From Sulfurospirillum sp. (GTDB taxonomy: Bacteria; Campylobacterota; Campylobacteria; Campylobacterales; Sulfurospirillaceae), in assembly GCA_045047115.1 (NCBI GenBank), contig JASFYR010000009.1:1-64000 (forward strand): a stretch of DNA of 64,000 nt, in the 5' to 3' direction. Positions 7,416-36,072 of the stretch are shown here, in pieces. How positions within the stretch are numbered: position 1 is the first letter of the stretch; each line of letters starts with the position of its first letter. A model generated the notes under the pieces. That model did not search any database. It was given only the letters and a program-made list of their open reading frames with translations, and was not told the DNA's origin. The position numbers and the translations under genes are program-made.

Positions 7416-7535
7416 GATTTACTGGTATTGGGCAATGTGAAAAAATACAAACAGTAAAAATAAGCTAAATTTAAGAAAGTGTGCCTCCAGAGCTGCACCT
7501 TTGTTATCAAGGGCTCTGCGAGGGTATCATTCGTC

Positions 7536-7555: not shown

Positions 7556-7602
7556 TGTCTATATCTGTTTTTTAGAGATATTTTATGTAGCTAAAATTTA
7601 TT

Positions 7603-7633
7603 TTACAATTTCTTCACAATTCCTTATTATAAT
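7603..7633 (+). promoter_or_regulatory. 11-bp tandem repeat plus -10 box upstream of the beta-barrel gene
   Basis: TTACAATTTCT TCACAATTCCT then TATAAT. Confidence 0.5.
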
Positions 7634-7720
7634 GTATTATTAACAAAAAGATAATTATATAATTAATTTTAAGTTAATATTATTGGTAAAAGTGTTAAAA
7701 TTGATAAAAAAGGAGAAAAA

Positions 7721-18700: not shown

Positions 18701-18730
18701 AATTGCCAACATAAATCTCATAACCCACAT
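12797..18730 (-). CDS. giant exported protein (CARDB-like x2, IPT/PKD-like, beta-rich C-terminal half)
   Basis: Signal peptide; LPDLAIRSV...ITNIG..A..S...ESNTRNN CARDB-like pattern twice; ISWGDG; Gly/aromatic beta-rich C-terminus. Confidence 0.7.
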   Translation of the reverse strand: MWVMRFMLAICLGIFSSYALDLTHKSGTGGISLNKNSFHLNKNIKFRTNKLPDLAIRSVSIKPNIKPKSKIGKNREISLNITNIGKAKAPKSILKLTCRARQGTCPKILNSYIMLNPIKCGRTLKIYWGKNSKERWSEGLFYITASVKLKPTHTFTNNQNQTKESNTRNNKKQFTIKVKSNEYIDFAIGDIKLSKKICANKRLNQNPKIKVKIANLGNHDAPKSTMCVKCTKVGSTTSFTTADFSSSCPAYLIGYAKIPPIKSGKTFILKWPQNSAKKWKAGRYKLLFNANCTARDGIKEHDTYDNNNKKLFKFEVKNCKSKLLPIKPVHVTTRPIVSTSNKEQIIFSSIFPSHWKQGKKYNIIIKGKKLNKKLDFRFSKDISILSQIFLNKKEIKLKIKVSTKAKTGKTYLLYNIKNSIVGKFIKTKLYGWIEKSVTFKKVMPKFKIKPITPDIKFPMGKILLEKPEFGSFGCGGDVYQDKGIPKLNDKTVFTFREENPGLAENFQLQVINRNGDILLAKNLGKTKAFHADSNFVYKILELMQRPTHSFAIKGNDKIANFKKLQKTSSAKIEKITKTKMINPANNPHSNKNINSGVGYPANGVDINMANNFNVSPRDQYMNTHRNEIKLFWKVIGTRAYKKNGTAKKEQKQSIEKTPKMELVTFVVEQSDSWPLSINDFTTGLTCKADHKTSNINIQNLDLGKGKEPGVTATVNYTGDHIELSGSFDLKKSPWAYREYNSNAVWIGPRNIFISWGDGVVEPLNLKKADKEYEINSMTHRYLSQGARKIRVFMLPEDDIQHNNPSQIVAAYNYYAGTKSASLNTNFKTIGTSQNDPYYQTLQLGGNLPTPNMDMVKISKHAYMLYCHKIVIDPRADLVASGPLHLESIAIAETNGGESSSKTTESGSNKLISSVKNGYKLSNKSTKKSTSTSNIKNISKNRVKYKETAEFTNCDSLQANAKLRYYGKGNVQFKWTLYGSDDSKLLLGTYSKPLGPSKQRKNLTQDNFNTPSSDSFSYFPVDSKVLELDKFKINKKYRLYVDATVDPFTASTLSQKEMLNEIADAIPHVQKIASNTITPQMLRVAFNSNTINNPYLTQIQKSGAKFGVLSPSKHLAKGMPMVANVNQAISHATGITPSYKNVPKKKPYYVKSSSYDFKVTPHAQGKPCKFVITTKSGDKFTVKNISKSVTEVSKGVYSGTGDIDISLNAGDKSEILLPVNIDHWKVDGMDVIKGVLDTDFSHQITENGMKISLKKLHCQANKSDMELKLDMSAQENTLRIPGSSKALEWKDITSKLSDEGDWLYKDTKQREFSIGWSGFRIKSNSMLLDLDTKNGKGVGSQCSEQGKNGVKWTGIHLGNATLTPNTFDLVQNGYTKQISDWGIAQTGSKTGLCGKTTLGHFSTNFKKGKISFDKIDIDTKGGNFKAIYKNMDVKVPWLDTHLKGDAQLIDGQPGVEASANFKGLKSPAISKSYKTLKFTADNLIFGSFEGVGWGVWSDTAFTFSTKSSLVTDKAVLNGLIFGMDGRAHLLKDKTSTTIPLGGKASFGKTTVDLIAADLKLHPKNGKSLIDFTIKTNFSISKVLPTVSVPVCYKLNIVGDTYSALGPQVPKFDVPVAFPAGNPNAEAKVTCDYKKDAGQSKTASISQNNFEHLADAISNFSLATPAYASTGEGSTKNDQYKGSVDLAMYGGPPIKAEFRLGYEGGADYWLIRATVGLGQSGVPFIPPLMNLYKIRGGLGHNFPVDAFKHAGTINSVYPDIDGSYMFMAGIRIGSSDKFTVTTDGDLTIKIGEAARMDFRAWLLSTNHSGDGNFQGYIQYGGGNFDGALEGKLDYLGGMVKFVIPHDAMTMHFGHGDWHIYAGKKEGPRIHVFIVILDTNGYFMLDPHALAVGGGMSFYLNAGIGHISGNLDMGLEIRVPPHIMGYAEGAFEAKICCCEVCVGPSISAGVKAEALPLKVSAHACVDLPWPLGGVCGSFSL

Positions 18731-21560: not shown

Positions 21561-22841
21561 CTACTTATCAGAGTCAAATAGCATTTTGGCTCTGATTTTT
21601 TTATATCTTTTTGAAGTCATTTTTTTTATCTGTTTTTTGGTCAGTTTTGAGCCGTTTATGATATTGTTTGGTAGTTGCATATCTAAGACTTCATAGCCTG
21701 TTTTTTTTGGGTTGATTATCAAAGGATTGTTGTGGCAACTCTCGCAGGATTTTGCTCTCTTGCCTGTGGTGTGAGGAGAATAGGGGAGCCATACTTCTAT
21801 CTTTCTGCCGTCTATCTTGTTTATATCATCTAAAATCATTTTACCATTTTTATCTCTGTAGCTTATGCGATACTGAAAGAGAGGGCGCACTATCATAATC
21901 CTGCCATCCTTTGAATTTGCCAGATTAAAATGTTCCCATCTTTTATATCTGTAGCCACTGTACCAGATACCGTCTTTAAACTTGTGCGTTATCCAATCAG
22001 GCATCTTTGGTGGAATTTTTCTTTTGCTTTTTAGTGCTTTGTGTAAAAAATTTGTCAAATATCCATCTTCTTGCAGTGTCAAGTTTCCCCACTTTTTATA
22101 ATCGCTTGTGTCATCTCTAAAAACAGAGAGTTCATAGGAGTTGTTGTTCCAAGTAGAGTGACAAGTGGAGCAGGCTAATTTTGTGTGATAAGAGGTGTGG
22201 TTTTTTTTACTCAATTTTTTATGACAATCCCTGCAACTTGCTTTTTTTATGCCAAGCATATCATCTTTTTTATGACAATCAATACAAGTCATGCCAAGTC
22301 GATAGTGTATATCGCTACTTAGATGATGAAAATCTATACCGTATTTTTTGGGTGGATATCTGCCGTCTTTTGTGAGCGGTGCTCGATAACTTTTGTCATA
22401 ATCTTTTGGGAAAAGTCCTAAATAATCTCCGCCTACAAACTCTTTGTTGTGACAGCTAAGACACTTTTTCATATTTATTTTACTTTTTTGGCACTTGCCT
22501 TGTTTTTGGTGAGGAGTATGACAGGCTAAACAATCTTTGCCTCTATTCATGCCTTTTTCACCGCTACCTTTGTTGTTTAGATGACACTTTAAACACTTTC
22601 TTCTTAAAAAATCATCCACTAAGTCTTTTGTATTTTTTATCTTGGTTTTTGGTAGTGGAAGAGTTTGGATTGTTACATTGCTATCTTCTATACCCCACGC
22701 AATTCTTGTGATATTTATGGCTTTTTTAAGAGTGTAGTGCAAACTTTTTTTGCAGTTCTTAGTAACTTTGGGATGGCATTTTATACAATCATTTGCAGAT
22801 AAGAAAAGTGCTATGAATAGCAAGAGAGCTATTTTAGGCAT
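21561..22841 (-). CDS. octaheme c-type cytochrome (ExtO-like)
   Basis: Signal peptide and 8 CXXCH motifs. Confidence 0.85.
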   Translation of the reverse strand: MPKIALLLFIALFLSANDCIKCHPKVTKNCKKSLHYTLKKAINITRIAWGIEDSNVTIQTLPLPKTKIKNTKDLVDDFLRRKCLKCHLNNKGSGEKGMNRGKDCLACHTPHQKQGKCQKSKINMKKCLSCHNKEFVGGDYLGLFPKDYDKSYRAPLTKDGRYPPKKYGIDFHHLSSDIHYRLGMTCIDCHKKDDMLGIKKASCRDCHKKLSKKNHTSYHTKLACSTCHSTWNNNSYELSVFRDDTSDYKKWGNLTLQEDGYLTNFLHKALKSKRKIPPKMPDWITHKFKDGIWYSGYRYKRWEHFNLANSKDGRIMIVRPLFQYRISYRDKNGKMILDDINKIDGRKIEVWLPYSPHTTGKRAKSCESCHNNPLIINPKKTGYEVLDMQLPNNIINGSKLTKKQIKKMTSKRYKKIRAKMLFDSDK

Positions 22842-24586
22842 GATGTTTTTCCGCTATAAAAGAGTTTTTTTGATTTTTTAAAATCAACATATATCTTATC
22901 ACTATATTTGTTATGGCAAATGATACACTTATATGCTCCTATTATTTTGTTCAGTTCACCTGAATTAAAGCTTCTAGCCTCTTTTCTTGAAGTGCTTTGA
23001 AATTGTTTGCCTTTTGGTGATACAAAGGCATCTATCGGGTAGGAAAAAGGCATACCACTTTTTGTTGAATCATAAATCGGAGTAAATGATATGTTGCCAT
23101 CTTTTATATCCAAATTTCCTCGCCCAAGTCCCAAGGAGGCAGGATTAAAGTGACAGTCGACACAAGTTCTTGAAGTTTTTTGAGTAGTATGCGGATCCCA
23201 TCCTGCCATTGCTAATGAGTGAAATTGTTTAACTTTTTTATCTTTAAATACAGTGCCAATAACTTGACATCCAGGAGCAAAAGGCATAATTTTTTTATTG
23301 TAACCAATTCCTAGAGATGGCGATTCAAATCTTAAAAAACTTCTTAACTCTTGCCATTGTCCTTTGGTAACTTTCTTTTTTACCCAATCAAACTGCTTTC
23401 CATTTTGAAAATATATCTCATGACAACCATAACAGCTTGGTGCCCATGAGCTATGACAAGCTGAACAATCAAGCCTTTTGTGAATTGCTAGAGTATGATA
23501 TGGTTTGTCACTCATTTTGGGCAAATTAAACTTTTTACCATCAATTTTTCTATAAAAATCAGTTTTATTTCCATCTTTTTGTACATTGTATAGCGGCGAG
23601 TTGAATTTTTTGGTATAAGCTATGATTTTTGGCTCAGGTACTTTTTCATTTGTATCCGCTAGCGTAACAGCAAGGGTATTTGCCTTTTCAAAGTGGGGTT
23701 TATGACAGTCTTTGCACTTGATATCTTCGGCCTCTTCCATGTGATAGTGCTTTTTACCGTCTCCCATCACACCTTTTTCGGTATGGCAATCTATACAACT
23801 CATGTTTGCACTCTTATGGTGTATGTCATCAGGAAGATTATAATAAAATCTTCTGCCGTCACTCATCTTGTGTGTGAAATCTCCATGTTTGTAAGGCGTG
23901 CCGTAACCCGCACTCTCAAAAATACCCTCATAAGAGAGTCCTATGCGGTTTGAGCGATTATGGCATTTGAGGCAGTTTTTTGTGGGAATTGCCGTAGTGA
24001 ATTTAGCATGTAAGTTGCCTTTTGTTTTTGAGCTTCTATGACAGTCACTACATCCACCACCTCTTGCAATTTTTTGATTTTTAAAAATTTTTTCATCTTG
24101 ATTGATATGACAAGCCGCGCAGAGTTTTCTAAAGTGGCTTTGTGCGAGCGAGATATTTGTATCTCCTCTTATGTCTGCTATGCCTATAGTTGAGTTCAAC
24201 TCTTTGCTTTCACCCCATTGGTATTTCAAAACATTTAGGATTCCACTTTGGGATTGCATCATGGATTTACTTACTCTTTTTATTATTTTTTTGTGGCACT
24301 TGATACAAAATATAGAGGCATGTTCGAGTCTTGCAGGGTTTAAAACCATGCCTTTGTGAGCATCTGCTTTGTCTGTTGCCCATCTGTTTCCGCCATGACA
24401 CGAGGCACAGCCAAATATCTCTTTTGGATGAGCATGGTCTATATCGCTCATATTGCTATGACAACTCATGCATTGGTCCGGTTTTGTCATCTTTGGAGTT
24501 TTTTTTATGCCGTTGGAAAAGATAGAATACACTAAAAGTGCTATAGATATAAGAGCTAGTATAAAGAGTATATTTTTATATTTCAT
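22829..24586 (-). CDS. dodecaheme c-type cytochrome (ExtM-like), membrane anchored
   Basis: 12 CXXCH motifs; start set to ATG 24586, which overlaps the cytochrome b stop (ATGA). Confidence 0.85.
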   Translation of the reverse strand: MKYKNILFILALISIALLVYSIFSNGIKKTPKMTKPDQCMSCHSNMSDIDHAHPKEIFGCASCHGGNRWATDKADAHKGMVLNPARLEHASIFCIKCHKKIIKRVSKSMMQSQSGILNVLKYQWGESKELNSTIGIADIRGDTNISLAQSHFRKLCAACHINQDEKIFKNQKIARGGGCSDCHRSSKTKGNLHAKFTTAIPTKNCLKCHNRSNRIGLSYEGIFESAGYGTPYKHGDFTHKMSDGRRFYYNLPDDIHHKSANMSCIDCHTEKGVMGDGKKHYHMEEAEDIKCKDCHKPHFEKANTLAVTLADTNEKVPEPKIIAYTKKFNSPLYNVQKDGNKTDFYRKIDGKKFNLPKMSDKPYHTLAIHKRLDCSACHSSWAPSCYGCHEIYFQNGKQFDWVKKKVTKGQWQELRSFLRFESPSLGIGYNKKIMPFAPGCQVIGTVFKDKKVKQFHSLAMAGWDPHTTQKTSRTCVDCHFNPASLGLGRGNLDIKDGNISFTPIYDSTKSGMPFSYPIDAFVSPKGKQFQSTSRKEARSFNSGELNKIIGAYKCIICHNKYSDKIYVDFKKSKKLFYSGKTSCLK

Positions 24587-25386
24587 AAACCAAAAACCGA
24601 TATATATGCATAAAACAAGAGCCAAAGAATCAAAAGAGTTTTGATGAGTAGCCTGTAGCTGGTAAAAATGTATAAAAAGAGGAATGCAAAAGGTATAAAA
24701 AGTATAAGATTTACACTTAAGGGCGATAGAGATTTCAGTAGCATATTTTCTGCACCTTGAAAAAACCAGGGGCTTGAGAGTGTGGTTGCTTTTTCGTTTA
24801 AATTTATATCGCTTGGCATATTTAGGGACACAATCGCTAAAACAGTGATGCCAAAGGCGATACTTAGATATTCGGTCTTTACATACAGAGTATCGATGTG
24901 TCTATATATCGCATATCCAAGCATAAGAGGTAAAAATAGTATATGCCAGATAAAAAACTTATAGTAAAAAACAGTATTGTCTTTAAAAAGTGATAAAAAT
25001 GAGTTTAAAACAGGAGTGTTTTTGATGAGGTTAAATGCTACTTCTGCTGCACCGTTTGCACTTAAATCTGCTTTTAGTACAAATCCGCTAAACATTAAAA
25101 TCACTACCGATGCAAAACCTAAAATTGAGTAAATCCAGGATTTATTTGTTATCTTGATTCTGGATTTGCTTAATTCAAGTAGAATATGCATTAAAAGAGA
25201 GATGGTAAATATTTCTGAGCTAAAGTAGTGTAGTTTTCTAAAAAATTCTCCATAAGGTATGAGAAAATTTATCTTTTGAACACTGGCAAATGCAGCTGAT
25301 GGATGATAGGCAAAGACTACTATAAGACCACTAAGCATACTAACAAAAAAGAGCCCAAGCGTAAGAAAGGATACAAATCTAGACAT
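24583..25386 (-). CDS. cytochrome b/b6-like membrane protein
   Basis: RKLHYFSSE...LMH and WH...RH heme ligands; SPWFF in the PEWY-equivalent position. Confidence 0.8.
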   Translation of the reverse strand: MSRFVSFLTLGLFFVSMLSGLIVVFAYHPSAAFASVQKINFLIPYGEFFRKLHYFSSEIFTISLLMHILLELSKSRIKITNKSWIYSILGFASVVILMFSGFVLKADLSANGAAEVAFNLIKNTPVLNSFLSLFKDNTVFYYKFFIWHILFLPLMLGYAIYRHIDTLYVKTEYLSIAFGITVLAIVSLNMPSDINLNEKATTLSSPWFFQGAENMLLKSLSPLSVNLILFIPFAFLFLYIFTSYRLLIKTLLILWLLFYAYISVFGL

Positions 25387-25388
25387 AT

Positions 25389-25778
25389 CTACCCTATAAA
25401 AAGTTTATTATTTTTGATATTGAAAGCTATTTTATCCAAATCTCTCTGTGCCGGTCCTTTGATTCTGTAGCCATCTATCGTAAATTGGCTGTGGTGACAA
25501 GGACAAATAAACTTTTTTTTATCTTTGTAGAAGTTTAAAATACAGCCCATATGGGTACAGTGAGCATCAAAAACCTCTATTTTATCAGCATTTTTATAGA
25601 TAAAAATGTTATGTTTTTTTATCTTTGTGATTCCATCTTTTATATTTTTAGAAGAGATCCAAAACTCTTTATCTGTATCTTGACTAAAAAATATAAATTT
25701 TCCGATAGGATATGCCAAAACTCCTGCCATGGTATATGGCAGGAGTTTTAGAAATTTTCTTCTTCTATTATTCAACAT
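25389..25778 (-). CDS. Rieske 2Fe-2S protein
   Basis: Tat-like RRKFLK; CTHMGC and CPCH motifs. Confidence 0.92.
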   Translation of the reverse strand: MLNNRRRKFLKLLPYTMAGVLAYPIGKFIFFSQDTDKEFWISSKNIKDGITKIKKHNIFIYKNADKIEVFDAHCTHMGCILNFYKDKKKFICPCHHSQFTIDGYRIKGPAQRDLDKIAFNIKNNKLFIG

Positions 25779-25803
25779 TTAAAATTCAACATTCAACATT
25801 AAA

Positions 25804-26163
25804 TTAACATCCCTCGAATTGAGCTCCACCACTAGCTTTTGGAGCTTGTGCAGCTGTTGTTTCGTCTATAAAAGTATTGAAATCTTTTATATCTCCATTG
25901 TCTGCCAATCTTTGTATAACATCATTATAATTTGCCCAAGCTGTTTTTTCCCAAGGGTTTGCTTGTACAGCTTTTTGAGCATATACTTTCGCAAGCGGTA
26001 AATTATCGTTGCTTACCATCTGTCTTGAAAGTTTAACATAGTGAGCACAAAGAACTTTATCCATACTGTAGTTTTGACTGTTTTGGGCACTAAGATTTAT
26101 ACCAAGTAACCCTAAAAGTAACCCTAGACCCATAACTGCGATGATTAGTTTTTTTATTCTCAT
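25804..26163 (-). CDS. small exported protein with C-terminal Cys (…GGAQFEGC)
   Basis: Signal peptide, TPR-like helices, Ala/Gly tail ending in Cys; in operon with RBS. Confidence 0.75.
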   Translation of the reverse strand: MRIKKLIIAVMGLGLLLGLLGINLSAQNSQNYSMDKVLCAHYVKLSRQMVSNDNLPLAKVYAQKAVQANPWEKTAWANYNDVIQRLADNGDIKDFNTFIDETTAAQAPKASGGAQFEGC

Positions 26164-26172
26164 TTTATTCTC

Positions 26173-26766
26173 CTAATAATTTACTGTGACATAATAGACA
26201 TTTGGTGATGTCCCTTCGTCCTCTTTTAGTTTAGCTATACTAGTAGCATCTCTTAACAATTTTGAAACATTGCTGTCTTTATCATTTAGATCACCAAAGT
26301 TTCTCGACTCCCCAACACAAGTTGCAACACAAGCCGGATCAAGTCCGTTTGAGATTCTAGGCAAACAGAAAGTACACTTATCGACTGACTTTTTCTCTTC
26401 ATTATAATATCTTGCATCATACGGACAAGCTACCATACAAGCCTTACAGCCTATACACATGTCAGGCTCAACTAAAACGATACCATCCTCATCTCTTTTG
26501 AAACTTGCTCCTGTCGGACAAACATCTACACAAGGTGCATTATCGCAGTGGTTACAGAGTGTAGGCAAAAAGCTGATAGTCGGATTTTTATGTACATCTT
26601 CACCCTCTACTACAAAAACCTTTGTTCGGTATGCCTCTTTCATGGCAGGCACATCCCAATCAGTTTTGCAAGCAACATAGCAAGCATTACAACCGATACA
26701 TCTATCTCCGACTATAACCATCGCTAGGTTTTTTTGTTTTTTTGTTTTTCTTTTTAATAAACTCAT
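26173..26766 (-). CDS. 4Fe-4S electron-transfer subunit (PsrB/NrfC/DmsB type)
   Basis: CIGCNACYVAC, CNHCDNAPCVDVCP, CIGCKACMVACP, CTFC...PACVATC. Confidence 0.93.
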   Translation of the reverse strand: MSLLKRKTKKQKNLAMVIVGDRCIGCNACYVACKTDWDVPAMKEAYRTKVFVVEGEDVHKNPTISFLPTLCNHCDNAPCVDVCPTGASFKRDEDGIVLVEPDMCIGCKACMVACPYDARYYNEEKKSVDKCTFCLPRISNGLDPACVATCVGESRNFGDLNDKDSNVSKLLRDATSIAKLKEDEGTSPNVYYVTVNY

Positions 26767-26767
26767 A

Positions 26768-29029
26768 TTATGCCCTTACTATTTTTACAAAAGCATTGTT
26801 ATATGCAGCTGCTCCACTGAGCGGATCAACCCCATCACTGACAAACCAAACATCTTTAGTGCCTTTTTTGTATCCTCTAGTCCATCTTTTTGTTGTATGT
26901 CCAAAACCATGATGGATAAATACAGCTCCATCTTTCATTCTTTTGGTAACTTTTAGTCTTTCGCTATGAACTGATCTATGTCCCGTTTTTGCATCTACTA
27001 TGTACACCATATCACCGTCTTTTAAGCCCAATTTTTTCGCATCTTTTGGACTCATCCATACAGGGGTATCGTCTTGTAACTCAAGAAGTAACCAGTTGTT
27101 TTGACTTCTGGCATGTGAATGGTTAGGTGTTTTTCCAGACAAAAACCTAAACTCATCTTTTTTTGGCATTATAGGATCTTTGTAGATTGGAAGTGGAGAA
27201 AAATCATCCCCGCTTTTTTTATATAGCTTTTCCAAATCAGGCACATACAACTGAACTTTGCCAGTTGAAGTTGTAAAATGCATAGCAGCCCCACTTGCAT
27301 TTGGATATGGATCAACATCTTCAAAGAGAAGCACACCCTCTTTTTCCAAAGTTTCCATTTGTTCTTTGCTTAAAATTTTTGGTAATTCTTCAATTTGCTC
27401 TTTTGGAGATTTTTCAAACCATTTTTCAAGTCCAAATTCTTTTGCTATACCCTTACAAATATCAAAACATCCTTTTGTATCATATATAGGATTTATGGCA
27501 GGTTTTCTAAGAGCTATAAAAGGTATTTTATCACTTTGTACAAATGGAGCGTCATACCTTTCAAGATAAGTTGACTCAGGAAAAATGACATCCGCATACA
27601 TGACTGTATCACTAAACTGGGTATCTATCGCAATGATAAGATCTAAATTATCCATAGCTTTGTATAGATGATTCACGCCAATTGACGAATGAGATAAAGG
27701 ATTTGTTCCATATATCAACCAGGCTTTTAAAGGATATGGTTTTTGTGTCAGGGTTGCTTCATATATACCGTTTGTTCTACCAAGATTTGTTGGTGCTAAG
27801 AAGTATTTTTCACCTTTGCCTGCTCCATCGGCTCTTCTGGCTTTAGGATGTTCAGGATGTTTTTCTTTTGGAAAATCAACTGGAACTTTACTTCTTATCC
27901 ATATGCCACCTGGCACTGCCCAACTCCCCATAAGAGCATTTATGATAGCTATAGCTCTTACTGTTTGAGTGTCATTTCCATATCTTGCCATTCTTCTAGC
28001 TGGAATTGCTACGACATTTGGTGCATCTTTTGCAAACTCCCAAGCTATTCTTACTATGGTTTTAGCATCTATCCCACACTTTTTACTAGCCCATTCCGGA
28101 GTGTATTGCTTTACATGTTTAACAAGTTCGTTATAACCGTAACAATACTTTCTTACAAAATCCATATTTACCAGATTGTCTCTGATAAATACATGTATAA
28201 ACCCCAATGCCAAAGCCAAGTCTGTGCCAGGAATAATTTGTAGCCAATCCGTTGCATTTACGGCTGATTCGCTCTGTCTTGGATCTATGTAGGTTAGCTT
28301 TGAGCCTCTTGCCAATCCCTCAGCAAAATCTTCAGCTTCTCTTACTTGAACAGCTCCTGCCATATTTCTTCCAAAAATCATCATATGTTTTGAATTTGCC
28401 ATATCGTAAGTTTCATGTCCGCTAATTCCGGTACCAAATGTAAGAGCCCATGCCATTTCACGACTACCTAAACATTGAGAATATGCCGGTATTGTTATAT
28501 TTGGACTTCCAAGTGCCATTGTAAGCATATGAGGATAAGGCTCACCAGTTCCGTGCATAAAGGTTGCCAATGTTTCTGGACCATGCTTTTTTATAAGTGG
28601 ATTTAATTTCTCATATACATATTTACTTGCTTCTTCCCAAGATACTTTTTTAAATTTGCCTTCTCCTCTTTTGCCTGTTCTTATCAGTGGAGATTGGACT
28701 CTGTCTGCATCATATGTTGACTGAATTCCTGCATTTCCTTTTGCACAGAGATGTCCTCTGTTATTTGGATTTAACGGATTTCCTTCTAGCTTATGAACTA
28801 CACCTTTTCTTGTATATGCTTTTACTCCGCAGTTAAAAAAACACATTTCACAAAAGCTTGGTGACTCAACTCCTCGGTCGTATTTTAGAAATCTGGCACC
28901 TCTTGTTGCTTCTTGTTTGGCAGATGCCTTTAGAGGAGATGGAAGGCCTGTAATTCCGGCAGTAACAGCAACTGAACTTGCGCCTGCAAGTTTTAAAAAA
29001 CCTCTTCTTGATATATGGTGTCTGCTCAT
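26768..29029 (-). CDS. Tat-exported molybdopterin oxidoreductase (Psr/Phs/Srr clade) catalytic subunit
   Basis: SRRGFLK; CEMCFFNC...LCAKG FeS motif; putative Cys Mo ligand in PAYSQC; C-terminal MGD-binding domain. Confidence 0.9.
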   Translation of the reverse strand: MSRHHISRRGFLKLAGASSVAVTAGITGLPSPLKASAKQEATRGARFLKYDRGVESPSFCEMCFFNCGVKAYTRKGVVHKLEGNPLNPNNRGHLCAKGNAGIQSTYDADRVQSPLIRTGKRGEGKFKKVSWEEASKYVYEKLNPLIKKHGPETLATFMHGTGEPYPHMLTMALGSPNITIPAYSQCLGSREMAWALTFGTGISGHETYDMANSKHMMIFGRNMAGAVQVREAEDFAEGLARGSKLTYIDPRQSESAVNATDWLQIIPGTDLALALGFIHVFIRDNLVNMDFVRKYCYGYNELVKHVKQYTPEWASKKCGIDAKTIVRIAWEFAKDAPNVVAIPARRMARYGNDTQTVRAIAIINALMGSWAVPGGIWIRSKVPVDFPKEKHPEHPKARRADGAGKGEKYFLAPTNLGRTNGIYEATLTQKPYPLKAWLIYGTNPLSHSSIGVNHLYKAMDNLDLIIAIDTQFSDTVMYADVIFPESTYLERYDAPFVQSDKIPFIALRKPAINPIYDTKGCFDICKGIAKEFGLEKWFEKSPKEQIEELPKILSKEQMETLEKEGVLLFEDVDPYPNASGAAMHFTTSTGKVQLYVPDLEKLYKKSGDDFSPLPIYKDPIMPKKDEFRFLSGKTPNHSHARSQNNWLLLELQDDTPVWMSPKDAKKLGLKDGDMVYIVDAKTGHRSVHSERLKVTKRMKDGAVFIHHGFGHTTKRWTRGYKKGTKDVWFVSDGVDPLSGAAAYNNAFVKIVRA

Positions 29030-30177
29030 TAGTGTGTCTCCTCTTCCAAATTAAAAAACTTTTCGCCTAAAAAATATACCAAAGTTGCGACACCTAAACC
29101 ACCTATAAAAATGGAAAGTTCGCTGTTTGATACATGATAAGTGTGCAGAGTAAAATTCATATGGATACTTGGGCGAGAGAGAAGTTGTCCGCCAACTATC
29201 ATATCAAATCTTGCAAAAAACATACCTATGACCATAAAAAACCCTGCCAATGCAGAAAAGAAAGGAGACTTGAAACCGCTGAGAACAAGTAAAATTACAG
29301 GTAAAATGATACCTAGACCCAATTCAAAATAGTAAAAATTATTTGCCAATGGACCATTTCCAATAAAAAGTTTCATCGTAGCGTCTAGTTCGCTTTGGGC
29401 TCCATATGTATTTAGGAAGATATTCCATGTGTCTACAAAAAACATCAAACATAAACCCAAAAAGAGCATCTTGCTAAGTGCTCTTACATTTTCTTTGAGT
29501 ATCTCCCCTCTGCCACTTACAAAAATCATCATAAGCACTATAGATGCTCCTGCAGCTACAGCTGAGATGATGAAAAAGAGTGAAAATGATGTACTGTGCC
29601 AAAGTGGTCTAGTAGCATTTGAAGCAAAAACGAATGCAAGGGTAGAGTAGGCAATTACTCCCAAAAATAGTCCGAAAAGTGAAGCAAAAAAGGCTGATCT
29701 ATTTTTTTTGCTCATAAGAAAATATACCTCTATTGCTAGGAGAGGTAATTCTATCATGTAAAGTGTTACCATCCACCATATAGGTGAGGTTATCTCAAAG
29801 TTTGTATAGTATTTCAAAAGTCTTAGAGTTTGAAGCTGATATGGTCCAGCCAATTCCCAAAAGATGATAAAAAATGCGCCAATTAGAGCTGCAAGTGAGA
29901 CAAGAGCGACTCTTTTACTCATCACATGAAAGGCTGAAACTTTAAAAACATGTGCGAGCGAGCCGATTATCGCTGTCCCAGCACTGATACCTACTAAAAA
30001 AGAGTAGCCAATGATTAAAATACCCCAAGGTACTTCTCTACTGATCCCGTAAGATTCCTCTTGGCCATAGATGAAGACATGATACATGCCATATAAACTA
30101 ATAGCCGCTATAAAAAAAGACAAAAATAGCCACACGCTAGCGGGCTTTTTTTGCAGAATAGTTGCGTCTGTACTCAT
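29029..30177 (-). CDS. NrfD/PsrC family membrane anchor
   Basis: VPWG.....Y.F.VG.SAG, TSPIWW, RPLWH; about 10 TM helices. Confidence 0.9.
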   Translation of the reverse strand: MSTDATILQKKPASVWLFLSFFIAAISLYGMYHVFIYGQEESYGISREVPWGILIIGYSFLVGISAGTAIIGSLAHVFKVSAFHVMSKRVALVSLAALIGAFFIIFWELAGPYQLQTLRLLKYYTNFEITSPIWWMVTLYMIELPLLAIEVYFLMSKKNRSAFFASLFGLFLGVIAYSTLAFVFASNATRPLWHSTSFSLFFIISAVAAGASIVLMMIFVSGRGEILKENVRALSKMLFLGLCLMFFVDTWNIFLNTYGAQSELDATMKLFIGNGPLANNFYYFELGLGIILPVILLVLSGFKSPFFSALAGFFMVIGMFFARFDMIVGGQLLSRPSIHMNFTLHTYHVSNSELSIFIGGLGVATLVYFLGEKFFNLEEETH

Positions 30178-30698
30178 AATTTTTCCTTAAAAGAGTTAAT
30201 TATTTTTATTGAAATATTTAAAGCATAACTGAAATATTTTACATCTGTAGCCAAATTCAAAGAATTTGCAAAATCATTTGTCCAAGTTAAAAACTTGGCA
30301 AACTCTTTTATCTCTTCTATTTTATTGTCTTCAGCTAAAATTGCTATAAATGAAATCATTGAAGATATATTGTCAGCTGGCTGTTTTACTTTTTCAGCAT
30401 CAAATTTATATCCACACCTAATATAAAAATCATGAATTTTTGACAGAGTTCTTCCTGACATTCTTCCATCAATCCACCAAGATGCATAAGGAACACATCT
30501 TAGTTTTGTAGAACTCATCGAAAAAACTCTTAAATACTCAGCGCATAAGTCATCAAAAGCAACTTCTTGTGAATTACACTTGGTATTTGTCAAATCTTCT
30601 AATTTTTTTATATTGTTTTTATACTCACTGTTTGGATAGTCTAAAATATCCGCACACAAAAAGAGTGCGGATATTTTATCATTAAGTGATAGCTCCAA
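30174..30698 (-). CDS. TorD/DmsD family chaperone
   Basis: EYLRVF...PYASWW...FY...QPADNIS; start reassigned to TTG 30698 just after the rhodanese stop. Confidence 0.8.
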   Translation of the reverse strand: MELSLNDKISALFLCADILDYPNSEYKNNIKKLEDLTNTKCNSQEVAFDDLCAEYLRVFSMSSTKLRCVPYASWWIDGRMSGRTLSKIHDFYIRCGYKFDAEKVKQPADNISSMISFIAILAEDNKIEEIKEFAKFLTWTNDFANSLNLATDVKYFSYALNISIKIINSFKEKL

Positions 30699-30699
30699 T

Positions 30700-31641
30700 T
30701 TACTTATCACCCTTGATAAGTCTTCTTTTTGGCCATCTTGTGTAATCAGCCATACTTCCGCTGTACATTCTTGATTTGTCACCCATGCCAAGAATATATC
30801 TTGCTGTAAACCAGGTACCAGTTGCTAAGTGACCGGTGTTACAATAAGAGATGATTGGTTTGTTTGTATTGAGTCCAGCCTTTTTAAATTTTTTAGCAAT
30901 AAATGCTTTGCTTCCTAGATAGTAAACTCCATCTTTTTTCACAGTTAAAATTTTTGGACTAAGTGGTATTGCACCCTTTAGATGACCTTCGTGTAATCTT
31001 CTTGGGTCTTTTGCCGTTCCGTACCAGTGCTTATTTTTTCCATTTGCATCCAGTGTTTGGGCGTCGCCTGTCCAAACAGCTTCATCAACATTTTCACCCG
31101 TAGCCATGATAGCTTGGTTAAATTTTCTGCCTTTGAAGCTAAAGTTTCCTCTAGTAACTTTTGGTCTTATATTGTTAACTGCTCCACCAGCTTTTTTCCA
31201 GCCAGCCAGTCCACCATTTAAGATAGCTACATTTGAAAAACCGTAGTATTCACATGTGAAATCAGCAAGCGTGGAAAACAAGAAGTCTCCTGGCTTAGCA
31301 CCGCCACTATAAAGAACTATAGCACTGTCATTATTTACACCACTTTTTCTCATTGTTCTCTTAATTGTAAGAGGAGCGGCTACATAACCGGGAATTGGTT
31401 TTTTAGTGATTCTGCTATAGTATCTACCCTCTCTAAAATCTCTGCTTTTCCAGGCAACTGCACCCTTTATGTGTTTTGCCTTATAGCCTTTTTTCCTCAC
31501 ATCTATAATTACAAGGTTTTTATCACCCATGTGTGATTTTAACCATGCAGCATCAACAATGTGATTTGCAGGGACAGTTAGAGCCATTGCTGAAACTGAT
31601 ATAAGAGCTGATATAATCAACCCACTTGAAATTTTCTTCAT
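30700..31641 (-). CDS. exported tandem-domain sulfurtransferase (rhodanese)
   Basis: Signal peptide; HIKGA, LNGGLAGW, active site YCNTGHLA, YSGSMADY. Confidence 0.9.
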   Translation of the reverse strand: MKKISSGLIISALISVSAMALTVPANHIVDAAWLKSHMGDKNLVIIDVRKKGYKAKHIKGAVAWKSRDFREGRYYSRITKKPIPGYVAAPLTIKRTMRKSGVNNDSAIVLYSGGAKPGDFLFSTLADFTCEYYGFSNVAILNGGLAGWKKAGGAVNNIRPKVTRGNFSFKGRKFNQAIMATGENVDEAVWTGDAQTLDANGKNKHWYGTAKDPRRLHEGHLKGAIPLSPKILTVKKDGVYYLGSKAFIAKKFKKAGLNTNKPIISYCNTGHLATGTWFTARYILGMGDKSRMYSGSMADYTRWPKRRLIKGDK

Positions 31642-31671: not shown

Positions 31672-31704
31672 ATTCTATAATAAAAAAGGGAGTAAAAAGG
31701 GAGT
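31672..31704 (-). promoter_or_regulatory. operon promoter with perfect 11-bp tandem repeat
   Basis: AAAAAGGGAGT x2 (31683-31704) next to a minus-strand TAGAAT. Confidence 0.65.
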
Positions 31705-31727
31705 AAATAGAAAATGATGAATATATT

Positions 31728-33170
31728 TTAAAAAATAATAGTAAAAATTGCCCCAGTGTGTAGATTTTTCACATCTATTTTTCCATTATTGTTTTTTTCG
31801 ATGATCATTTTGGTCATATATAGACCTATGCCTGTACCGGAATTTGCATATTTTGTTGTAAAATACGGTTCAAAAATTTTATCGATTGGATTAGTGGTTA
31901 TACCACCGGCATTGTCTTGTATAGTTACTGTTTTTTTTGAGTTTTTTATAAAAGCTCTGATTATGATTTCAGGATTTTTTATCCCTCTTTCGATGCAGAC
32001 ATCTTTTGCATTGTTTATAATGTTTACAAAAGCCTGTACGATTTCGTTTGGGAATCCGATTAAGTTGAAATTTTCCCCCATATTGATTGTTAGTTTGATT
32101 TTATTTTTATCTAATGTTGCACTTAAGAGTTGTTCTGTTAGAGATATGACCTCTTTGATTGTATACTCCTCTTTTGGCTTCCCGGATGAAAAAAAGTTTC
32201 TAAAATCATCAATAGTATTTGACATAAAGGAAATCTGTGTATTTGCTTCGTTAATTTTTTCTTCTAGTTTGTTTCCTGTCAATTTACCTCTGTTTGAGTT
32301 TAATTCGATATTTACGAGTATGATAGAAAGTTGCGCTAGAGGTTGTTTCCATTGGTGGGCTATGTTGCCAATCATCTCGCCCATAGATGCTAGTTTGTTT
32401 TGGTTTAATAAAAGAAGATCTTGCCTGGCTTGAAGTTTTTGGTTCTTTTTATAGATAATGTATAGAAATATGTAAAAGATTATAAAAACAATCAAAGCTA
32501 TGGAAATCGTAATCAAAAAGTCCTTTATGTGTGTCGAAACTATGTGCGAGAGTGGAATCTTTAGTGAAATAATAGCTCTTAAATCTCCTGTTTTTTCGTA
32601 AAATCCTGCCTTGTCTCCATACATCTGTATCAACTCTTTTGGTGCAATATTCGGTGTGCTGTGACATTTCATGCATGATTTTTTATTTCTTTCGATTGGA
32701 ACAGCAACATAGAAGTAATTTTTACCGTTTTCTTTTAAGATTGTCGAAAATTCTTTAATTTTTTTTTTTCTAAATTTTTCCAAGATTCTTTTTTCAAAAT
32801 CATTTGCTCTATTTATTGGATTTCTAGGGTTTGTTGCTGCTAGTTTGAATTTGTAAGGGATTTTATTTTTTAATTTTTGTGAATTAGTATACATGTGGTG
32901 AATAGTGTTTACTATATATGTTGATGACATAATTCTTGAATCAAAGAAATCCTTATACAACTTTCCTTTCTTTTTAAGATTATAAATAACAGGTTTTTGG
33001 ATATTTTCTATATAGCTTCTTATTGTTTTTGTGGTATTTAAAATATTTACTACTTCTTGTTTTGCATCTTTTATCACAAGGTGCTGATAGAAGTTATAAA
33101 AAAAACCAACCATAGTAATATAGAGCAAAATTAGAAGAATAGCTGAAATTCTAAGATTTATTTTAAACAT
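31728..33170 (-). CDS. sensor histidine kinase with periplasmic heme c (DUF3365/Tll0287-like) domain
   Basis: AATNPRNPINRA, SCMKCH, IAHQWKQPL, HATPase G boxes. Confidence 0.9.
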   Translation of the reverse strand: MFKINLRISAILLILLYITMVGFFYNFYQHLVIKDAKQEVVNILNTTKTIRSYIENIQKPVIYNLKKKGKLYKDFFDSRIMSSTYIVNTIHHMYTNSQKLKNKIPYKFKLAATNPRNPINRANDFEKRILEKFRKKKIKEFSTILKENGKNYFYVAVPIERNKKSCMKCHSTPNIAPKELIQMYGDKAGFYEKTGDLRAIISLKIPLSHIVSTHIKDFLITISIALIVFIIFYIFLYIIYKKNQKLQARQDLLLLNQNKLASMGEMIGNIAHQWKQPLAQLSIILVNIELNSNRGKLTGNKLEEKINEANTQISFMSNTIDDFRNFFSSGKPKEEYTIKEVISLTEQLLSATLDKNKIKLTINMGENFNLIGFPNEIVQAFVNIINNAKDVCIERGIKNPEIIIRAFIKNSKKTVTIQDNAGGITTNPIDKIFEPYFTTKYANSGTGIGLYMTKMIIEKNNNGKIDVKNLHTGAIFTIIF

Positions 33171-33179
33171 ATTATTTAA

Positions 33180-33878
33180 TCATATAGTTTTAAATATATA
33201 GCCAACACCATATATATTTTCTATCATCTCTTTTTCTATCTTTTTTCGCAACTCTTTTATTATAAATTTTATAGCCTCTTTGCTGGGAGTGTCAAGACCC
33301 CAGATATAACCGTAAATACTACTATAAGACACCACTTGGTTTGGGTGTTTTATGAAATACTCCAAGAGTCTGCTTTCATTTGTGGAGAGTTTATTGCTTT
33401 TTTGATTGATATATATAGTCTTTGTGCAGGGATTATATGTGCATTGTTCATGCAATTTTATATTTGTTTTGTTATCTGCTAGTTCTAGGCATACAGCTTC
33501 TAGTGTTTTGATCAGAGTATCTTTATAGCAAGGTTTTGAAAGATATTTTGTAATTTTTAGCTCAATTGCACGCCAGAGATACTCTTGCTCTGTATGAGCA
33601 GAGATGATAACAATAGGAATTTTTTTGTCTGTTTCCCTAATTTTTTTTATGGTTTCAATTCCATCAAGATGTGGCATGAATACATCAAATATAAGCACAT
33701 CATAACTGCTGTTTTCTAACTCTTTTAGTGCCTCTTGTCCATCTGTAACACCAACAACTTTTTGGAAAAAAAATTCTAAAATCTCTATAGTATTTTTTGC
33801 AATTCCTTCATCATCTTCGGCATATAGTACTTTTTTATCTGAAAGAATATCTAGTAAATTAGCTTTTTTTGTTTTCAT
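33180..33878 (-). CDS. OmpR-family response regulator
   Basis: LYAEDD...FDVFMPHLDG; wHTH ending GVGY. Confidence 0.9.
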   Translation of the reverse strand: MKTKKANLLDILSDKKVLYAEDDEGIAKNTIEILEFFFQKVVGVTDGQEALKELENSSYDVLIFDVFMPHLDGIETIKKIRETDKKIPIVIISAHTEQEYLWRAIELKITKYLSKPCYKDTLIKTLEAVCLELADNKTNIKLHEQCTYNPCTKTIYINQKSNKLSTNESRLLEYFIKHPNQVVSYSSIYGYIWGLDTPSKEAIKFIIKELRKKIEKEMIENIYGVGYIFKTI

Positions 33879-34272: not shown

Positions 34273-36063
34273 TTAATTATTTATTTCTATAACAAATACA
34301 GCCCCAACTTTGGAGTTTCTTGCATAAAGTTTTCCGTTAAAGTTTTCTTCTATTATTGTTTTTGACATATAGAGTCCGATACCGGTTCCGGTTTTTTGCT
34401 TGCTTGTAACATAGGCATCAAAAATTCTGTTTATAATTTTTTCATCTATGCCACCTGCATTATCTTTAATCTCTATAAATTTTTTTCCACTTTTTTCATA
34501 TACTTCTATATCTATATATGAATTTTTTATATTTTTTTCCTCTAGTGCATCTTTTGCATTTTGTATGATATTTAGAATTACTTGAGAGAATTGGTTCGCA
34601 AAGCCTAAAACTTTAAATTTATTTTTTATTTGTAAAGAGAGTTCTATTCCTTCGTGTTTTATGGAGGCATTTACAATTTTATATGCATTTCCAATAGCAA
34701 TAGACGGGTCAAAAAATGATTTTTCACTGTCTTCTTTATAAAAATTACGAAAATCCTCTATGGTTTCGGACATATAATCAATTTGTTCAAGTGAATTTTT
34801 GTAATACCTGTTAAACATCTCTTTTGTGAGTTTTTTACCGTCATACATTGATTTTAGGTTTTGCATTATAAGGGAGAGTCTCGTGATCGGATGTCTCCAT
34901 TGGTGAGCGATATTGCCTATCATTTCACCGAGGGCTGCGAGTTTTGCCTGATTTTCCAAAAGCCTGTCTTTTGCCCTGTTTTTTTCTATCTCGACTTGAA
35001 CTCTTATTTCAAGATTATTTGCCTGTTTTGCAATGCTTTCCGCCTCTTCTTCTAATGAATCATATAGCTTTGAGATAGGAAAAGATACAAGGTATGCAAA
35101 TGGAAAAGATATAAAGACGGCAAACAGAACAGTTGTCAGGACTCTTTGTCGTATCAGTTGGCTTGTTAACTTTTTCTGTTTTAGATTTTCAAAGTATATC
35201 AATTTTAGATTATTGTAGCCGCTTATTTTAAGGGTCTTTATATAATATCTATGTTCTTTTGAGAAAAAATTCTCTTTTGAAAAATTCTCTTTTTTGATAT
35301 TAAATTCATCTAAGGCATTAATCTTTTTGCCCTGGTATTTTGACCAATTGTTTTTCGGATTTTTACTGATAATAAAATTTCCACTTAAATCGCATAAATA
35401 AAGATCATATATAGAAGACTCTGTTAAATCATTTAGATAATGTTTCATAAAAACATTTAATATTAAAAAACCAAGATATCTGTTTTTGTCAAAAACAGGA
35501 ATAGAGACCCTGATGACAGGCTTGATTGGCTGTTCAATTTTTCCGTGTTCAACATTTAGATCAATATTTGAAAACCATACTTCTTTATCTTTTAGACTTG
35601 CACATTTTTTGCAGTAATATCTTTTGGATTTATTTTGTAAATTTTTTTGTTTGAAAACTTCTGTGCCTATATCTTTTCTGTCAAATCTTATTATTTCATC
35701 ACCATTTGAATTTATATATCTAAGCTGCATGTAGCTCTTGTCTGTTTTTATCATAGAGTAGAGTAGATCTTCAACAATTTTTTTGTCTTTGCCTGTTTTT
35801 ACAAATGATATAAATTCGTTATTTGATAAAATTGCTTTTATAAGATTGGAGCTTCTGCTTAAAAAATTATCTATATATCTCTGTTTTTGTGTAGAGTTTC
35901 GGATTGTATTATTTAGAAAATGCTTTAAAGACTCTTGTGCCGAAATTCTAACATGTAACATATAGATAGAAAAAAGTATAAGGGTTGCAAAAGTTATATA
36001 AGAGATAACCAGAATTTTCCTGAAACGTTTTTTCTGCTTTTTGATCTTTTCTATATTTGTCAT
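34273..36063 (-). CDS. sensor histidine kinase with Cache-like periplasmic domain
   Basis: LQNKSKRYY, IDLNVEHG..EQP.KPVIR, IAHQWRHP, GTGIGLYM. Confidence 0.9.
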   Translation of the reverse strand: MTNIEKIKKQKKRFRKILVISYITFATLILFSIYMLHVRISAQESLKHFLNNTIRNSTQKQRYIDNFLSRSSNLIKAILSNNEFISFVKTGKDKKIVEDLLYSMIKTDKSYMQLRYINSNGDEIIRFDRKDIGTEVFKQKNLQNKSKRYYCKKCASLKDKEVWFSNIDLNVEHGKIEQPIKPVIRVSIPVFDKNRYLGFLILNVFMKHYLNDLTESSIYDLYLCDLSGNFIISKNPKNNWSKYQGKKINALDEFNIKKENFSKENFFSKEHRYYIKTLKISGYNNLKLIYFENLKQKKLTSQLIRQRVLTTVLFAVFISFPFAYLVSFPISKLYDSLEEEAESIAKQANNLEIRVQVEIEKNRAKDRLLENQAKLAALGEMIGNIAHQWRHPITRLSLIMQNLKSMYDGKKLTKEMFNRYYKNSLEQIDYMSETIEDFRNFYKEDSEKSFFDPSIAIGNAYKIVNASIKHEGIELSLQIKNKFKVLGFANQFSQVILNIIQNAKDALEEKNIKNSYIDIEVYEKSGKKFIEIKDNAGGIDEKIINRIFDAYVTSKQKTGTGIGLYMSKTIIEENFNGKLYARNSKVGAVFVIEINN

Positions 36064-36072
36064 ATATTGTAT

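Follow-up and report, generated by a model that had tools for sequence, protein, structure and literature searches.

The question raised by the locus described here is what a bacterium might gain from combining, in one run of genes, a molybdoenzyme of the polysulfide reductase (Psr) type with a second respiratory module made up of a Rieske protein, a cytochrome b and two multihaem cytochromes c. The locus lies in a window of 64,000 nucleotides (nt), the whole stretch of DNA analysed (contig JASFYR010000009.1, positions 1 to 64,000, assembly GCA_045047115.1), and its host, deposited as Sulfurospirillum sp., is a vent-type bacterium of the Campylobacterota; the named records closest to it are metagenome-assembled genomes of Campylobacteraceae, Campylobacterales and Sulfurospirillaceae. 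The ten open reading frames (ORFs), all on the minus strand and read from 31641 to 21561, form a real, conserved unit which, to judge from its genes, probably lets the cell respire several sulfur compounds. No description of this gene union was found in the literature searched, subscription journals and all supplements being outside that scope, and as far as searched the unit is undescribed, each part belonging to or resembling a known family.

Composition of the unit

A preliminary description, made from the letters of the window alone, had listed ten co-directional genes separated by no more than 25 nt, and this is borne out once two start codons are corrected, the gaps then being +1, −4, −1, +1, +9, +25, +2, −4 and −13 nt. 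The TorD start is most likely TTG 30698, which gives 174 amino acids (aa) where several orthologues have 170–182 aa, and the start of the 12-haem gene is corrected to ATG 24586, which gives 585 aa, a length for which a database record exists. The gene order is as first stated:

30700–31641, minus strand: tandem-domain rhodanese, 313 aa (PF00581 in two stretches; ExtH model 56 bits against a cut-off of 200)
30174–30698, minus strand: TorD/DmsD-type chaperone, 174 aa (PF02613; NF003442 under its cut-off)
29029–30177, minus strand: NrfD/PsrC-family membrane anchor, 382 aa (PF03916)
26768–29029, minus strand: molybdenum (Mo)/tungsten bis-pyranopterin guanine dinucleotide (Mo/W-bisPGD) catalytic subunit, 753 aa (match to 2vpw, model NF012032, tree and motif table)
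26173–26766, minus strand: PsrB-type Fe-S subunit with four clusters, 197 aa (PF13247; orthologues 70–91% identical)
25804–26163, minus strand: small exported TPR-like protein with a Glu-Gly-Cys end, 119 aa (TPR structural look-alikes)
25389–25778, minus strand: Rieske protein of the disulfide type with a twin-arginine signal, 129 aa (PF00355, ligand-loop residues)
24583–25386, minus strand: minimal bc-type cytochrome b with seven membrane helices, 267 aa (haem His, Qo motif, structure model)
22829–24586, minus strand: 12-haem cytochrome c with an N-terminal membrane helix, 585 aa (ExtM model, structure model against 1sp3)
21561–22841, minus strand: exported 8-haem cytochrome c, 426 aa (ExtN model, paralogy)

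The identities given by the preliminary description agree with Pfam matches to Rhodanese, Nitrate_red_del (TorD type), NrfD, Molybdopterin/Molydop_binding/Molybdop_Fe4S4, Fer4_11, Rieske and Cytochrome_B, the 119-aa small protein having no Pfam match, and with CxxCH counts of 12 and 8 in the two cytochromes c, i.e., 20 c-haems in the run. Signal peptides were judged by eye only; by this measure, the Mo subunit and the Rieske protein carry twin-arginine signals, the rhodanese, the small protein and the 8-haem protein Sec-type signals, and the 12-haem protein a membrane helix.

Linkage and modularity

Conservation was assessed in 61 genomes, the host and 60 relatives, which are kin and so not an independent test. 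An orthologue of the Mo subunit with at least 62% identity is present in 19 of them (next matches at most 38%), 18 of which have the 12-haem orthologue and 17 the cytochrome b, and neither of these two was found in the other 42. The Mo-bearing genomes without the cytochrome b (G004, G009) are fragmented assemblies whose runs stop at contig edges. Among a second sample of 401 genomes drawn evenly from the phylum, the Mo orthologue occurs in 6, the 8-haem gene in 7 and the cytochrome b in 4 (five cytochrome b fragments at E ~1e-4 were set aside as noise), and all 6 genomes with the Mo orthologue also have the 8-haem gene. A closed genome (G013, L058) holds the whole run with one gene inserted ahead of the 12-haem gene, and the linkage persists in genomes of at least three families, with Mo subunits down to 53% identity. 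Strong co-occurrence was thus found, so that the preliminary description is not refuted on its own terms, by which the two halves would be transcribed separately and never occur together elsewhere.

For the survey of gene neighbourhoods, 51 of 107 loci were kept after removal of duplicates and of loci with less than 5.5 kb upstream, and these were divided by identity in the 12-haem protein into 26 close (at least 50%) and 25 distant loci (below 50%). The Mo gene, the cytochrome b and the 12-haem gene stand together in 16 of the 26 close loci, which cannot be put down to chance adjacency; by class, the close loci comprise these 16 with Mo enzyme and Rieske/cytochrome b, 8 with sulfur carriers only and 2 in which nothing was detected. 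Eight of the ten close loci without the Mo gene retain YeeE, rhodanese or Gly-Cys-tailed genes. The distant loci comprise 19 with the pair of 12-haem and 8-haem cytochromes (the haem pair) alone, 5 with Rieske/cytochrome b, 1 with carriers only and none with Psr; no Psr-clade gene is adjacent in any of these 25, one of which (L089) has a different Mo enzyme. These counts imply that the haem pair is the recurring unit to which the Mo clade clings, with the Rieske/cytochrome b pair as an optional part.

The same follows from the natural variants. The closed genomes G081 and G126 keep the gene order with Rieske protein and cytochrome b cleanly absent, as does a metagenome contig (L131); in both genomes the run holds the sole Psr-type enzyme found, and each has only one Rieske gene. 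Conversely, in G169 and G435 the haem pair is accompanied by YeeE-like, Gly-Cys-tailed and rhodanese genes, and no Psr-type match was found; no ext-type cytochrome b was found in G435 by the cytochrome b query, and G169 was not among the phylum's cytochrome b matches. The Psr half is inverted in two loci (L041, L043), and in G439 it lies on a different contig from the haem pair. The hybrid complex of the preliminary description, taken as an obligate one, is not upheld by these arrangements. The Mo enzyme is partnered more tightly by the haem pair than by Rieske protein and cytochrome b.

Two loci show further arrangements. One genome has a second copy of the operon, in which the cytochrome b match (L062:8694-9485, G012:C145) has one in-frame TAG. 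In L034:9995-20490 the haem pair stands right upstream of what looks by eye like a soxCDXYZAB cluster, and the Psr half of that genome is on another contig.

The molybdoenzyme arm

That the Mo subunit belongs to the Psr/Phs/Srr lineage, as first proposed, is supported by model score, by its match to PsrA and by a quick tree. Among solved structures it matches Thermus PsrA best (2vpw; E 5.9e-142), and the Cys, HGTG and PxR motifs align, as do the FS0 cluster motif and Cys ligand; its active-site loops are similar to those of Thermus PsrA and differ from the loops of Salmonella PhsA and the other Psr-like enzymes of the genome, and it scores 489 bits with the PhsA model NF012032 against a cut-off of 694. 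The subunit starts with an SRRGFLK twin-arginine motif (PF10518 18.1 bits, under the cut-off of 22.7) and is flanked by the four-cluster Fe-S subunit (PF13247) and the membrane anchor (PF03916). The tree, with 51 rows, no bootstrap, and without Thermus, Wolinella and SrrA references, puts it in a group with proteins labelled as coming from Hippea, Deferribacter desulfuricans, Flexistipes and Limisalsivibrio (SH-aLRT, the Shimodaira–Hasegawa-like approximate likelihood ratio test, 99), and separates it from Salmonella PhsA and three further Psr-like enzymes of the genome. This position hints at sulfur respiration without fixing the substrate, the Mo lineage spanning reductases of polysulfide, thiosulfate, selenite and S0 (PMC10100899).

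The 382-aa NrfD anchor had no sequence match among solved chains, PsrC included. Its residues Tyr58, Glu/Asp108 and Arg323 are kept in 24 of 24 sequences; their role is presumably that of the corresponding residues in Wolinella PsrC. A degenerate NrfD was considered and, given this conservation, rejected. The anchor is thus intact and is a first plausible quinone-reacting module, and on sequence grounds the arm as a whole is a complete PsrABC-type arm with its chaperone.

A Mo subunit 74% identical to that of the window is on record from Sulfurospirillum sp. 1612 (P0023). With H2, this strain can use S0, thiosulfate or nitrate for growth, and it contains mainly methylmenaquinone-6 (MMK-6); the papers on it speak of Psr and not of Rieske (PMC11406935, PMC13209400).

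The Rieske/cytochrome b pair

The four Cys and two His of the Rieske ligand loop are present in 35 of 35 sequences, as are the Ser (35/35) and the combination of Ser with Phe or Tyr (35/35), the Phe itself being found in 32. The four haem His of the cytochrome b are conserved in 42 of 42 sequences, and so is PWFF; the Qo motif is SPWF, and (G/S)PWF is likewise found in 42 of 42. Its AlphaFold2 (AF2) model has a mean predicted local distance difference test (pLDDT) score of 93.7 and matches five cytochromes b of bc/bcc complexes with Z 20.8–23.9 over 260–265 residues. From the model, the protein is a true bc-type cytochrome b that keeps both haems. The alignment to the bc/bcc chains begins, however, at their residues 18–36, the protein itself beginning at helix A, and only 52 residues stand ahead of the first haem His, as opposed to 94 in the PetB of the same genome; the D-E loop, from the last His to the conserved Pro, has 26–30 residues in 36 of 36 sequences versus 72 in PetB, and no residue of it is conserved in the aligned relatives. 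No canonical Qi site is evident, and a non-canonical one may be present. The two quinone-interacting modules claimed by the preliminary description are accordingly plausible, the NrfD residues speaking for the one, and the haem His, Qo motif and fold for the Rieske/cytochrome b pair as the other; the Q-cycle that it also considered is weakened by the missing N-terminal segment and the short loop.

By Qo motif and Rieske signature, the cytochrome b would be of the GPWF type within the GPWY/GPWF clade; complexes of this kind are noted to lack biochemistry (PMC4122944). The Ser/Phe signature goes with about +260 mV (PMC4122944), and one Ser/Phe Rieske protein was measured at +335 mV (PMC12954380), whereas the potentials of the candidate reactions are +198 mV for S4O6/S2O3, −275 mV for S0/HS-, −402 mV for S2O3 and −125/−70 mV for the menaquinones (PMC12949373). 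At its predicted potential of about +260 mV, the Rieske branch could hence not forward-feed the reduction of polysulfide or thiosulfate (−275 and −402 mV), while tetrathionate would be within its reach. Reduction of moderate-potential acceptors fed by Qcr has precedent in the Campylobacterota, and a tetrathionate route over Qcr and TsdA was suggested in C. jejuni (PMC6195509).

Sulfur carriers

The rhodanese has its active-site Cys267 in a CNTGH loop, kept in 24 of 25 sequences, and is predicted to be a periplasmic sulfane-sulfur transferase. The small protein resembles TPR structures (look-alikes scoring 0.91–0.94), followed by a low-complexity linker and the terminal Glu-Gly-Cys, in which Cys119 is found in 27 of 27 and the complete EGC in 23 of 23 sequences. 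In related loci, rhodaneses, one YeeE protein and a second small protein likewise finish in a Gly-Cys tail borne by a flexible acidic linker, and ORFs with such an end number 54 of 2604 in the loci (duplicates and a few chance cases included) versus 4 of 3403 in the host's own genome. The Glu-Gly-Cys arm probably carries a persulfide, and we take it to resemble the arm of SoxY.

Two other places in the genome contain such genes. At L152:5244-11247 (G000:C18) a divergent Ttr-like Mo enzyme of 1092 aa (TtrA model 447 bits vs 1750) is followed by two Gly-Cys-ended small proteins, which suggests that other sulfur Mo enzymes make use of the arm too. At L154:7867-9325 (G000:C9, ~157866-159325) a YeeE/YedE-like pair stands with a Gly-Cys-tailed small protein; this cassette matches one that flanks the haem pair in other genomes, and both its YeeE-like genes are split into short ORFs, being either pseudogenes or assembly errors.

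The haem pair

The 12-haem protein is a homologue of ExtM/CbcM (ExtM model 273 bits, cut-off 800), and the 8-haem protein is ExtN-like (80 bits, cut-off 200) and a paralogue of its neighbour, its counterpart having 10 haems in many relatives. No match to the 12-haem protein was found among plasmid records. In the AF2 model of the latter (pLDDT 92.6), residues 3–26 form the N-terminal membrane helix, and the best structural match is octahaem tetrathionate reductase (OTR, 1sp3), with Z 8.7, a root mean square deviation of 4.2, 266 aligned residues and 17% identity, the next match having Z 3.2; a Z of 8.7 is near the level that the comparison tool calls common, Foldseek gave E 0.12 and nothing at E ≤ 0.001, and a profile search of solved sequences did not have OTR among its matches. 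The modelled fold thus resembles that of OTR in a borderline manner. The region of haems 7 and 8 aligns weakly with NrfA.

The conserved free His, Met and Cys residues of the 12-haem protein are twelve in number and so equal its haems. Position 440 is Cys in 113 of 113 close sequences, and Met in 85 and Cys in 32 of 123 distant ones, Cys583 being kept in 97 of the latter; among the 32 sequences of at least 840 aa, the size class of the fusions, position 440 is Met in 31 and Cys in none. This Met/Cys switch suggests an axial haem ligand, and haems with His/Cys ligation mark several sulfur enzymes, MccSep among them (bioRxiv 2025.11.18.688581). Cys440 might have been special to this lineage, which was rejected, as true ExtM proteins (P0368 and P0319, above the 800-bit cut-off) also have it; they lack Cys583. 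The metagenome scan, which covered 80 of 280 confirmed stretches, was confined to the Cys-type branch. Fusion of a cytochrome b to a 12-haem homologue is indicated by PF00033 in 8 of 19 long distant homologues tested, and the xPWY/F motif recurs in 12 of 15 sequences inspected.

Several further multihaem genes came to light. The window holds one more paralogue, the third, at 38008–40311 on the minus strand. It encodes an ExtM-like cytochrome of 767 aa with 12 haems that likewise has the PGC motif, and it is preceded by two thioredoxin-like genes (36754–37928) and a second two-component pair (34273–36729); it is a widespread stand-alone gene in the order. On higher-GC metagenome contigs (L072-L133, 19 non-redundant loci) an 11-haem and 10-haem pair stands alone among housekeeping genes, neither a carrier nor a membrane partner being detected, and in two higher-GC loci (L113, L117:524-1438) a five-CxxCH protein of ~300–340 aa is encoded just upstream of Rieske/cytochrome b/haem-pair runs.

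Regulation and surroundings

Upstream of the unit stand:

31685–31706, minus strand: tandem 11-nt direct repeat (TTACTCCCTTT twice), ~45–65 nt 5' of the first start codon
31728–33878, minus strand: two-component pair, with an OmpR-type regulator (33180–33878) and a histidine kinase (31728–33170)

The repeat, after which a −10-like box, TATAGAAT, is located, is kept in 9 of the 25 loci listed, some of which are duplicate records of one sequence, and all 9 have a rhodanese at least 66% identical; a relaxed form of the pattern matches only two places in the host genome. Repeat and box are probably a response-regulator site and the operon promoter, the former presumably of the OmpR type. A general scan for promoter and terminator consensus sequences remained at chance level (58 vs 55.5, and 10 vs 8.2). 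The kinase bears a Tll0287-like haem-c sensor domain and adjoins the unit in L031, L033, L035, L042, L044, L064 and L065, and the pair is a probable regulator of the ten genes.

A 12-pair hairpin at 21567–21596 of the window, at the convergent junction of the 8-haem gene with a SNF transporter gene, is a possible shared terminator. Elsewhere in the window, positions 1–8000 are of low GC content (23–30% vs ~35%) with several ORFs that have no NCBIfam match at 1e-15, as is also true of a 1977-aa ORF (12797–18730) adjoining this stretch.

Function of the unit and alternative explanations

The reading preferred here, which may be given about an even chance of being right, is that of a periplasmic sulfur respiration with a low-potential Psr/Mo arm and a high-potential cytochrome arm. 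The unit would respire compounds with sulfur–sulfur bonds, its two arms sharing the sulfur carriers and the (methyl)menaquinone pool. In the first arm, electrons from quinol would travel by way of NrfD and then the Fe-S subunit until they reach the Mo centre; this centre may cleave polysulfide or thiosulfate, the rhodanese and the Glu-Gly-Cys carrier delivering the sulfur substrate to it. In the second, the ExtM/ExtN-like haem pair would be another sulfur-handling redox unit, acting either as a His/Cys-haem catalyst or as a haem wire; the dedicated Rieske/cytochrome b pair, where present, would join this arm to quinol at high potential, suiting it to acceptors like tetrathionate or longer polythionates, and in its absence that link might fall to NrfD or the ordinary bc complex. 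The two arms are probably co-regulated. In favour of the reading, the homologues in Geobacter, ExtMNOP, are encoded on either side of MccSep; that enzyme is a proven polysulfide reductase, and its electron donor has yet to be named (bioRxiv 2025.11.18.688581, PMC5877670).

A number of points weigh against this reading. Qo motifs with Pro at position 2 (APWY, PPWY) are tied to reverse operation (PMC4122944), and ordinary forward turnover is not easily reconciled with a cytochrome b in which no Qi parts are evident. Most Deferribacteres carry psrABC and only three species reduce S0 (PMC6896113), so that membership in the clade does not fix the substrate. Besides the unit, the host genome contains an ordinary bc complex, Sox genes and three further Psr-like enzymes, along with two enzymes that are Ttr-like and two that are TorA/BisC-like; hence no single trait requires the unit for its explanation, the growth of strain 1612 cannot be assigned to it either, and physiology by itself will not settle its role. 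OTR took no part in tetrathionate respiration of Shewanella ANA-3 (PMC12949373), the haem ligation by Cys440 is deduced from the substitution pattern alone, and in 19 of the 25 distant loci the haem pair stands without a detected carrier, Rieske/cytochrome b or Psr gene nearby, so that by context a sulfur role of the pair is not universal.

Oxidative or reverse operation, under which the disproportionation of the preliminary description falls, is a rather unlikely explanation. The Psr arm might oxidise sulfide to polysulfide and reduce quinone, with the Rieske/cytochrome b pair and the haems draining electrons to high-potential acceptors, an order (HS- at −275 mV, menaquinone, Rieske at about +260 mV) that runs downhill without strain; or else the haem pair might oxidise carrier-bound sulfur in the manner of SoxAX or TsdA, the Rieske/cytochrome b pair working in reverse so as to supply the Psr arm with reduced quinone. 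Cytochromes b of the GPWY type are partnered only by Rieske proteins of Mid+ or high potential, and APWY types are thought to work in reverse (PMC4122944). One haem-pair locus directly precedes the sox-like cluster mentioned above (L034). The Gly-Cys arm presumably has its parallel in SoxY. On the other hand, Sox genes and an ordinary bc complex are already present in the genome, it is with sulfur reduction that the homologous cluster of Geobacter is connected, and with the ext-type cytochrome b in just 4 of 401 phylum genomes this can be no general trait of the phylum's sulfur oxidisers. A single physical supercomplex with one catalytic site appears improbable. Here the haem chain would end on the Fe-S/Mo subunits and provide a second entrance to the Mo enzyme, or quinol would be bifurcated at the Qi-less cytochrome b, its very low-potential electron driving the uphill reduction of polysulfide or thiosulfate via the His/Cys haems. 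The Mo gene and haem pair are indeed tightly linked even where Rieske/cytochrome b is lost, the Qi parts are missing, and a Psr homologue can reduce tetrathionate (PMC12949373); since the potentials of Rieske protein and haem bP are usually symmetric about quinol (PMC12954380), values of +260 and −125 mV would, by our own arithmetic, put bP near −500 mV. However, haem pairs occur in genomes in which no Psr-type enzyme was found (G169, G435), the halves are inverted or unlinked elsewhere, and if S0 were the only acceptor, the electron of high potential would be left without a sink.

Reduction of selenite or tellurite, Srr-like or as first proposed for the ext cluster, is still less probable. 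SrrA belongs to the same lineage as the Mo subunit (PMC10100899), the NCBIfam Ext models are named for selenite and tellurite, and MccSep also reduces selenite, less efficiently than polysulfide, which it prefers sevenfold (bioRxiv 2025.11.18.688581); yet every Ext model scores far under its cut-off, neither an ExtI porin nor a MccSep gene is among the ten, and the neighbouring genes in relatives are YeeE and rhodanese. Nothing beyond family names points to the selenium role that the preliminary description had considered. The juxtaposition of two unrelated operons by chance, finally, is barely credible and largely refuted already: each half occurs on its own in some genomes, but the genes are translationally coupled over the junction (+9, +25, +2, −4 nt), and the linkage is kept over the families and identities given above.

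Going beyond two-armed sulfur respiration, it is conceivable, if rather doubtful, that the haem pair represents a family of sulfur enzymes with His/Cys haem that has so far gone unrecognised and, jointly, the GPWF Rieske/cytochrome b pair a new bc complex without a Q-cycle. The haem pair would then act on Glu-Gly-Cys-bound persulfides as the counterpart of SoxAX with SoxYZ, and the Qi-less bc complex would either pass on electrons of very low potential or run backwards, coupling high- and low-potential sulfur reactions.

Significance

How menaquinol electrons move uphill to polysulfide or thiosulfate is only partly understood, and the literature consulted credits neither the Geobacter Cbc6/ExtMNOP module nor the GPWF class of bc complexes with a demonstrated role. 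The locus puts an Ext-type module beside a second, unrelated sulfur reductase, Mo-Psr rather than MccSep. As natural deletion variants exist, with and without Rieske/cytochrome b and with and without the Mo enzyme, and a close relative of the Mo subunit occurs in a cultured vent strain, direction and substrate of the module are directly testable. Should the cytochrome arm only reduce polythionates, the gain would be useful though modest; should it prove to be a bc complex that lacks a Qi site or works in reverse, together with a new haem catalyst, sulfur respiration would have to be seen differently. The joint proposal, if true, would moreover supply the electron donor still missing for MccSep of Geobacter.

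Comparison with known systems

With the PsrABC of Thermus thermophilus (PDB 2VPW-2VPZ) the unit shares a Mo subunit exported by twin-arginine translocation (Tat), its Cys ligand and active-site loops, a four-cluster Fe-S subunit and an anchor of the NrfD family. It differs in the order C-A-B, in an anchor without sequence match to PsrC, and in the addition of carrier, Rieske/cytochrome b and 20 c-haems in one run. Cys ligand, FS0 motif, Tat signal and the Fe-S and anchor neighbours fit the PsrA/PhsA/SrrA lineage; the unit is not a PhsABC, given 489 vs 694 bits, an NrfD anchor instead of PhsC, ~30% identity and a separate clade in the quick tree. The selenite reductase SrrABCDEF is said to have the Mo lineage, NrfD, TorD and rhodanese partners in common with the unit, but reportedly has two rhodaneses where the unit has one, along with the added cytochrome arm. 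Nor is the unit an alternative complex III, as Cys ligand and FS0 motif are kept, whereas ActB of that complex lacks Mo/W-bisPGD (PMC10100899).

For the 12-haem protein the nearest known systems are OTR (PDB 1SP3), its best structural match, and the HAO/NrfA multihaem fold; the protein is 17% identical to OTR and differs in having 12 haems, a membrane anchor and a paralogous partner. Common to the unit and the GPWY/GPWF clade (Kao and Hunte 2014, PMC4122944) are the Qo motif (S/G)PWF, the Ser/Phe Rieske and, in some members, a c-type haem domain fused to the cytochrome b.

The Geobacter ext cluster (extHIJKLMNOPQS; Cbc6/CbcMNOPQR) with MccSep has homologues of the rhodanese, the small protein, the Rieske protein, the cytochrome b and the 12-haem and 8–10-haem proteins, and true ExtM shares Cys440; the role of Cbc6 is stated as unknown (PMC13591261). 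In the unit, by contrast, the place of MccSep as catalytic neighbour is taken by a Mo enzyme that brings its own NrfD, the order is O-P-M-N, and the cytochrome b is one chain where the ext cluster has ExtP and ExtQ; no gene for the five-haem MccSep (ExtKL), the porin ExtI or ExtS was found in the run, the rest of the genome having had no dedicated MccSep search. The likeness to the ext cluster drawn in the preliminary description is supported, as homology of the second half to ExtM/N/O/P, by the search with Ext models, all of them under their equivalog cut-offs (ExtM 273/800, ExtN 80/200, ExtP 67/290 and ExtH 56/200 bits). By these scores the unit is homologous to the ext cluster without being a member of it, and by analogy it may work like a PsrABC to which the ExtMNOP/Cbc6 module of Geobacter has been added.

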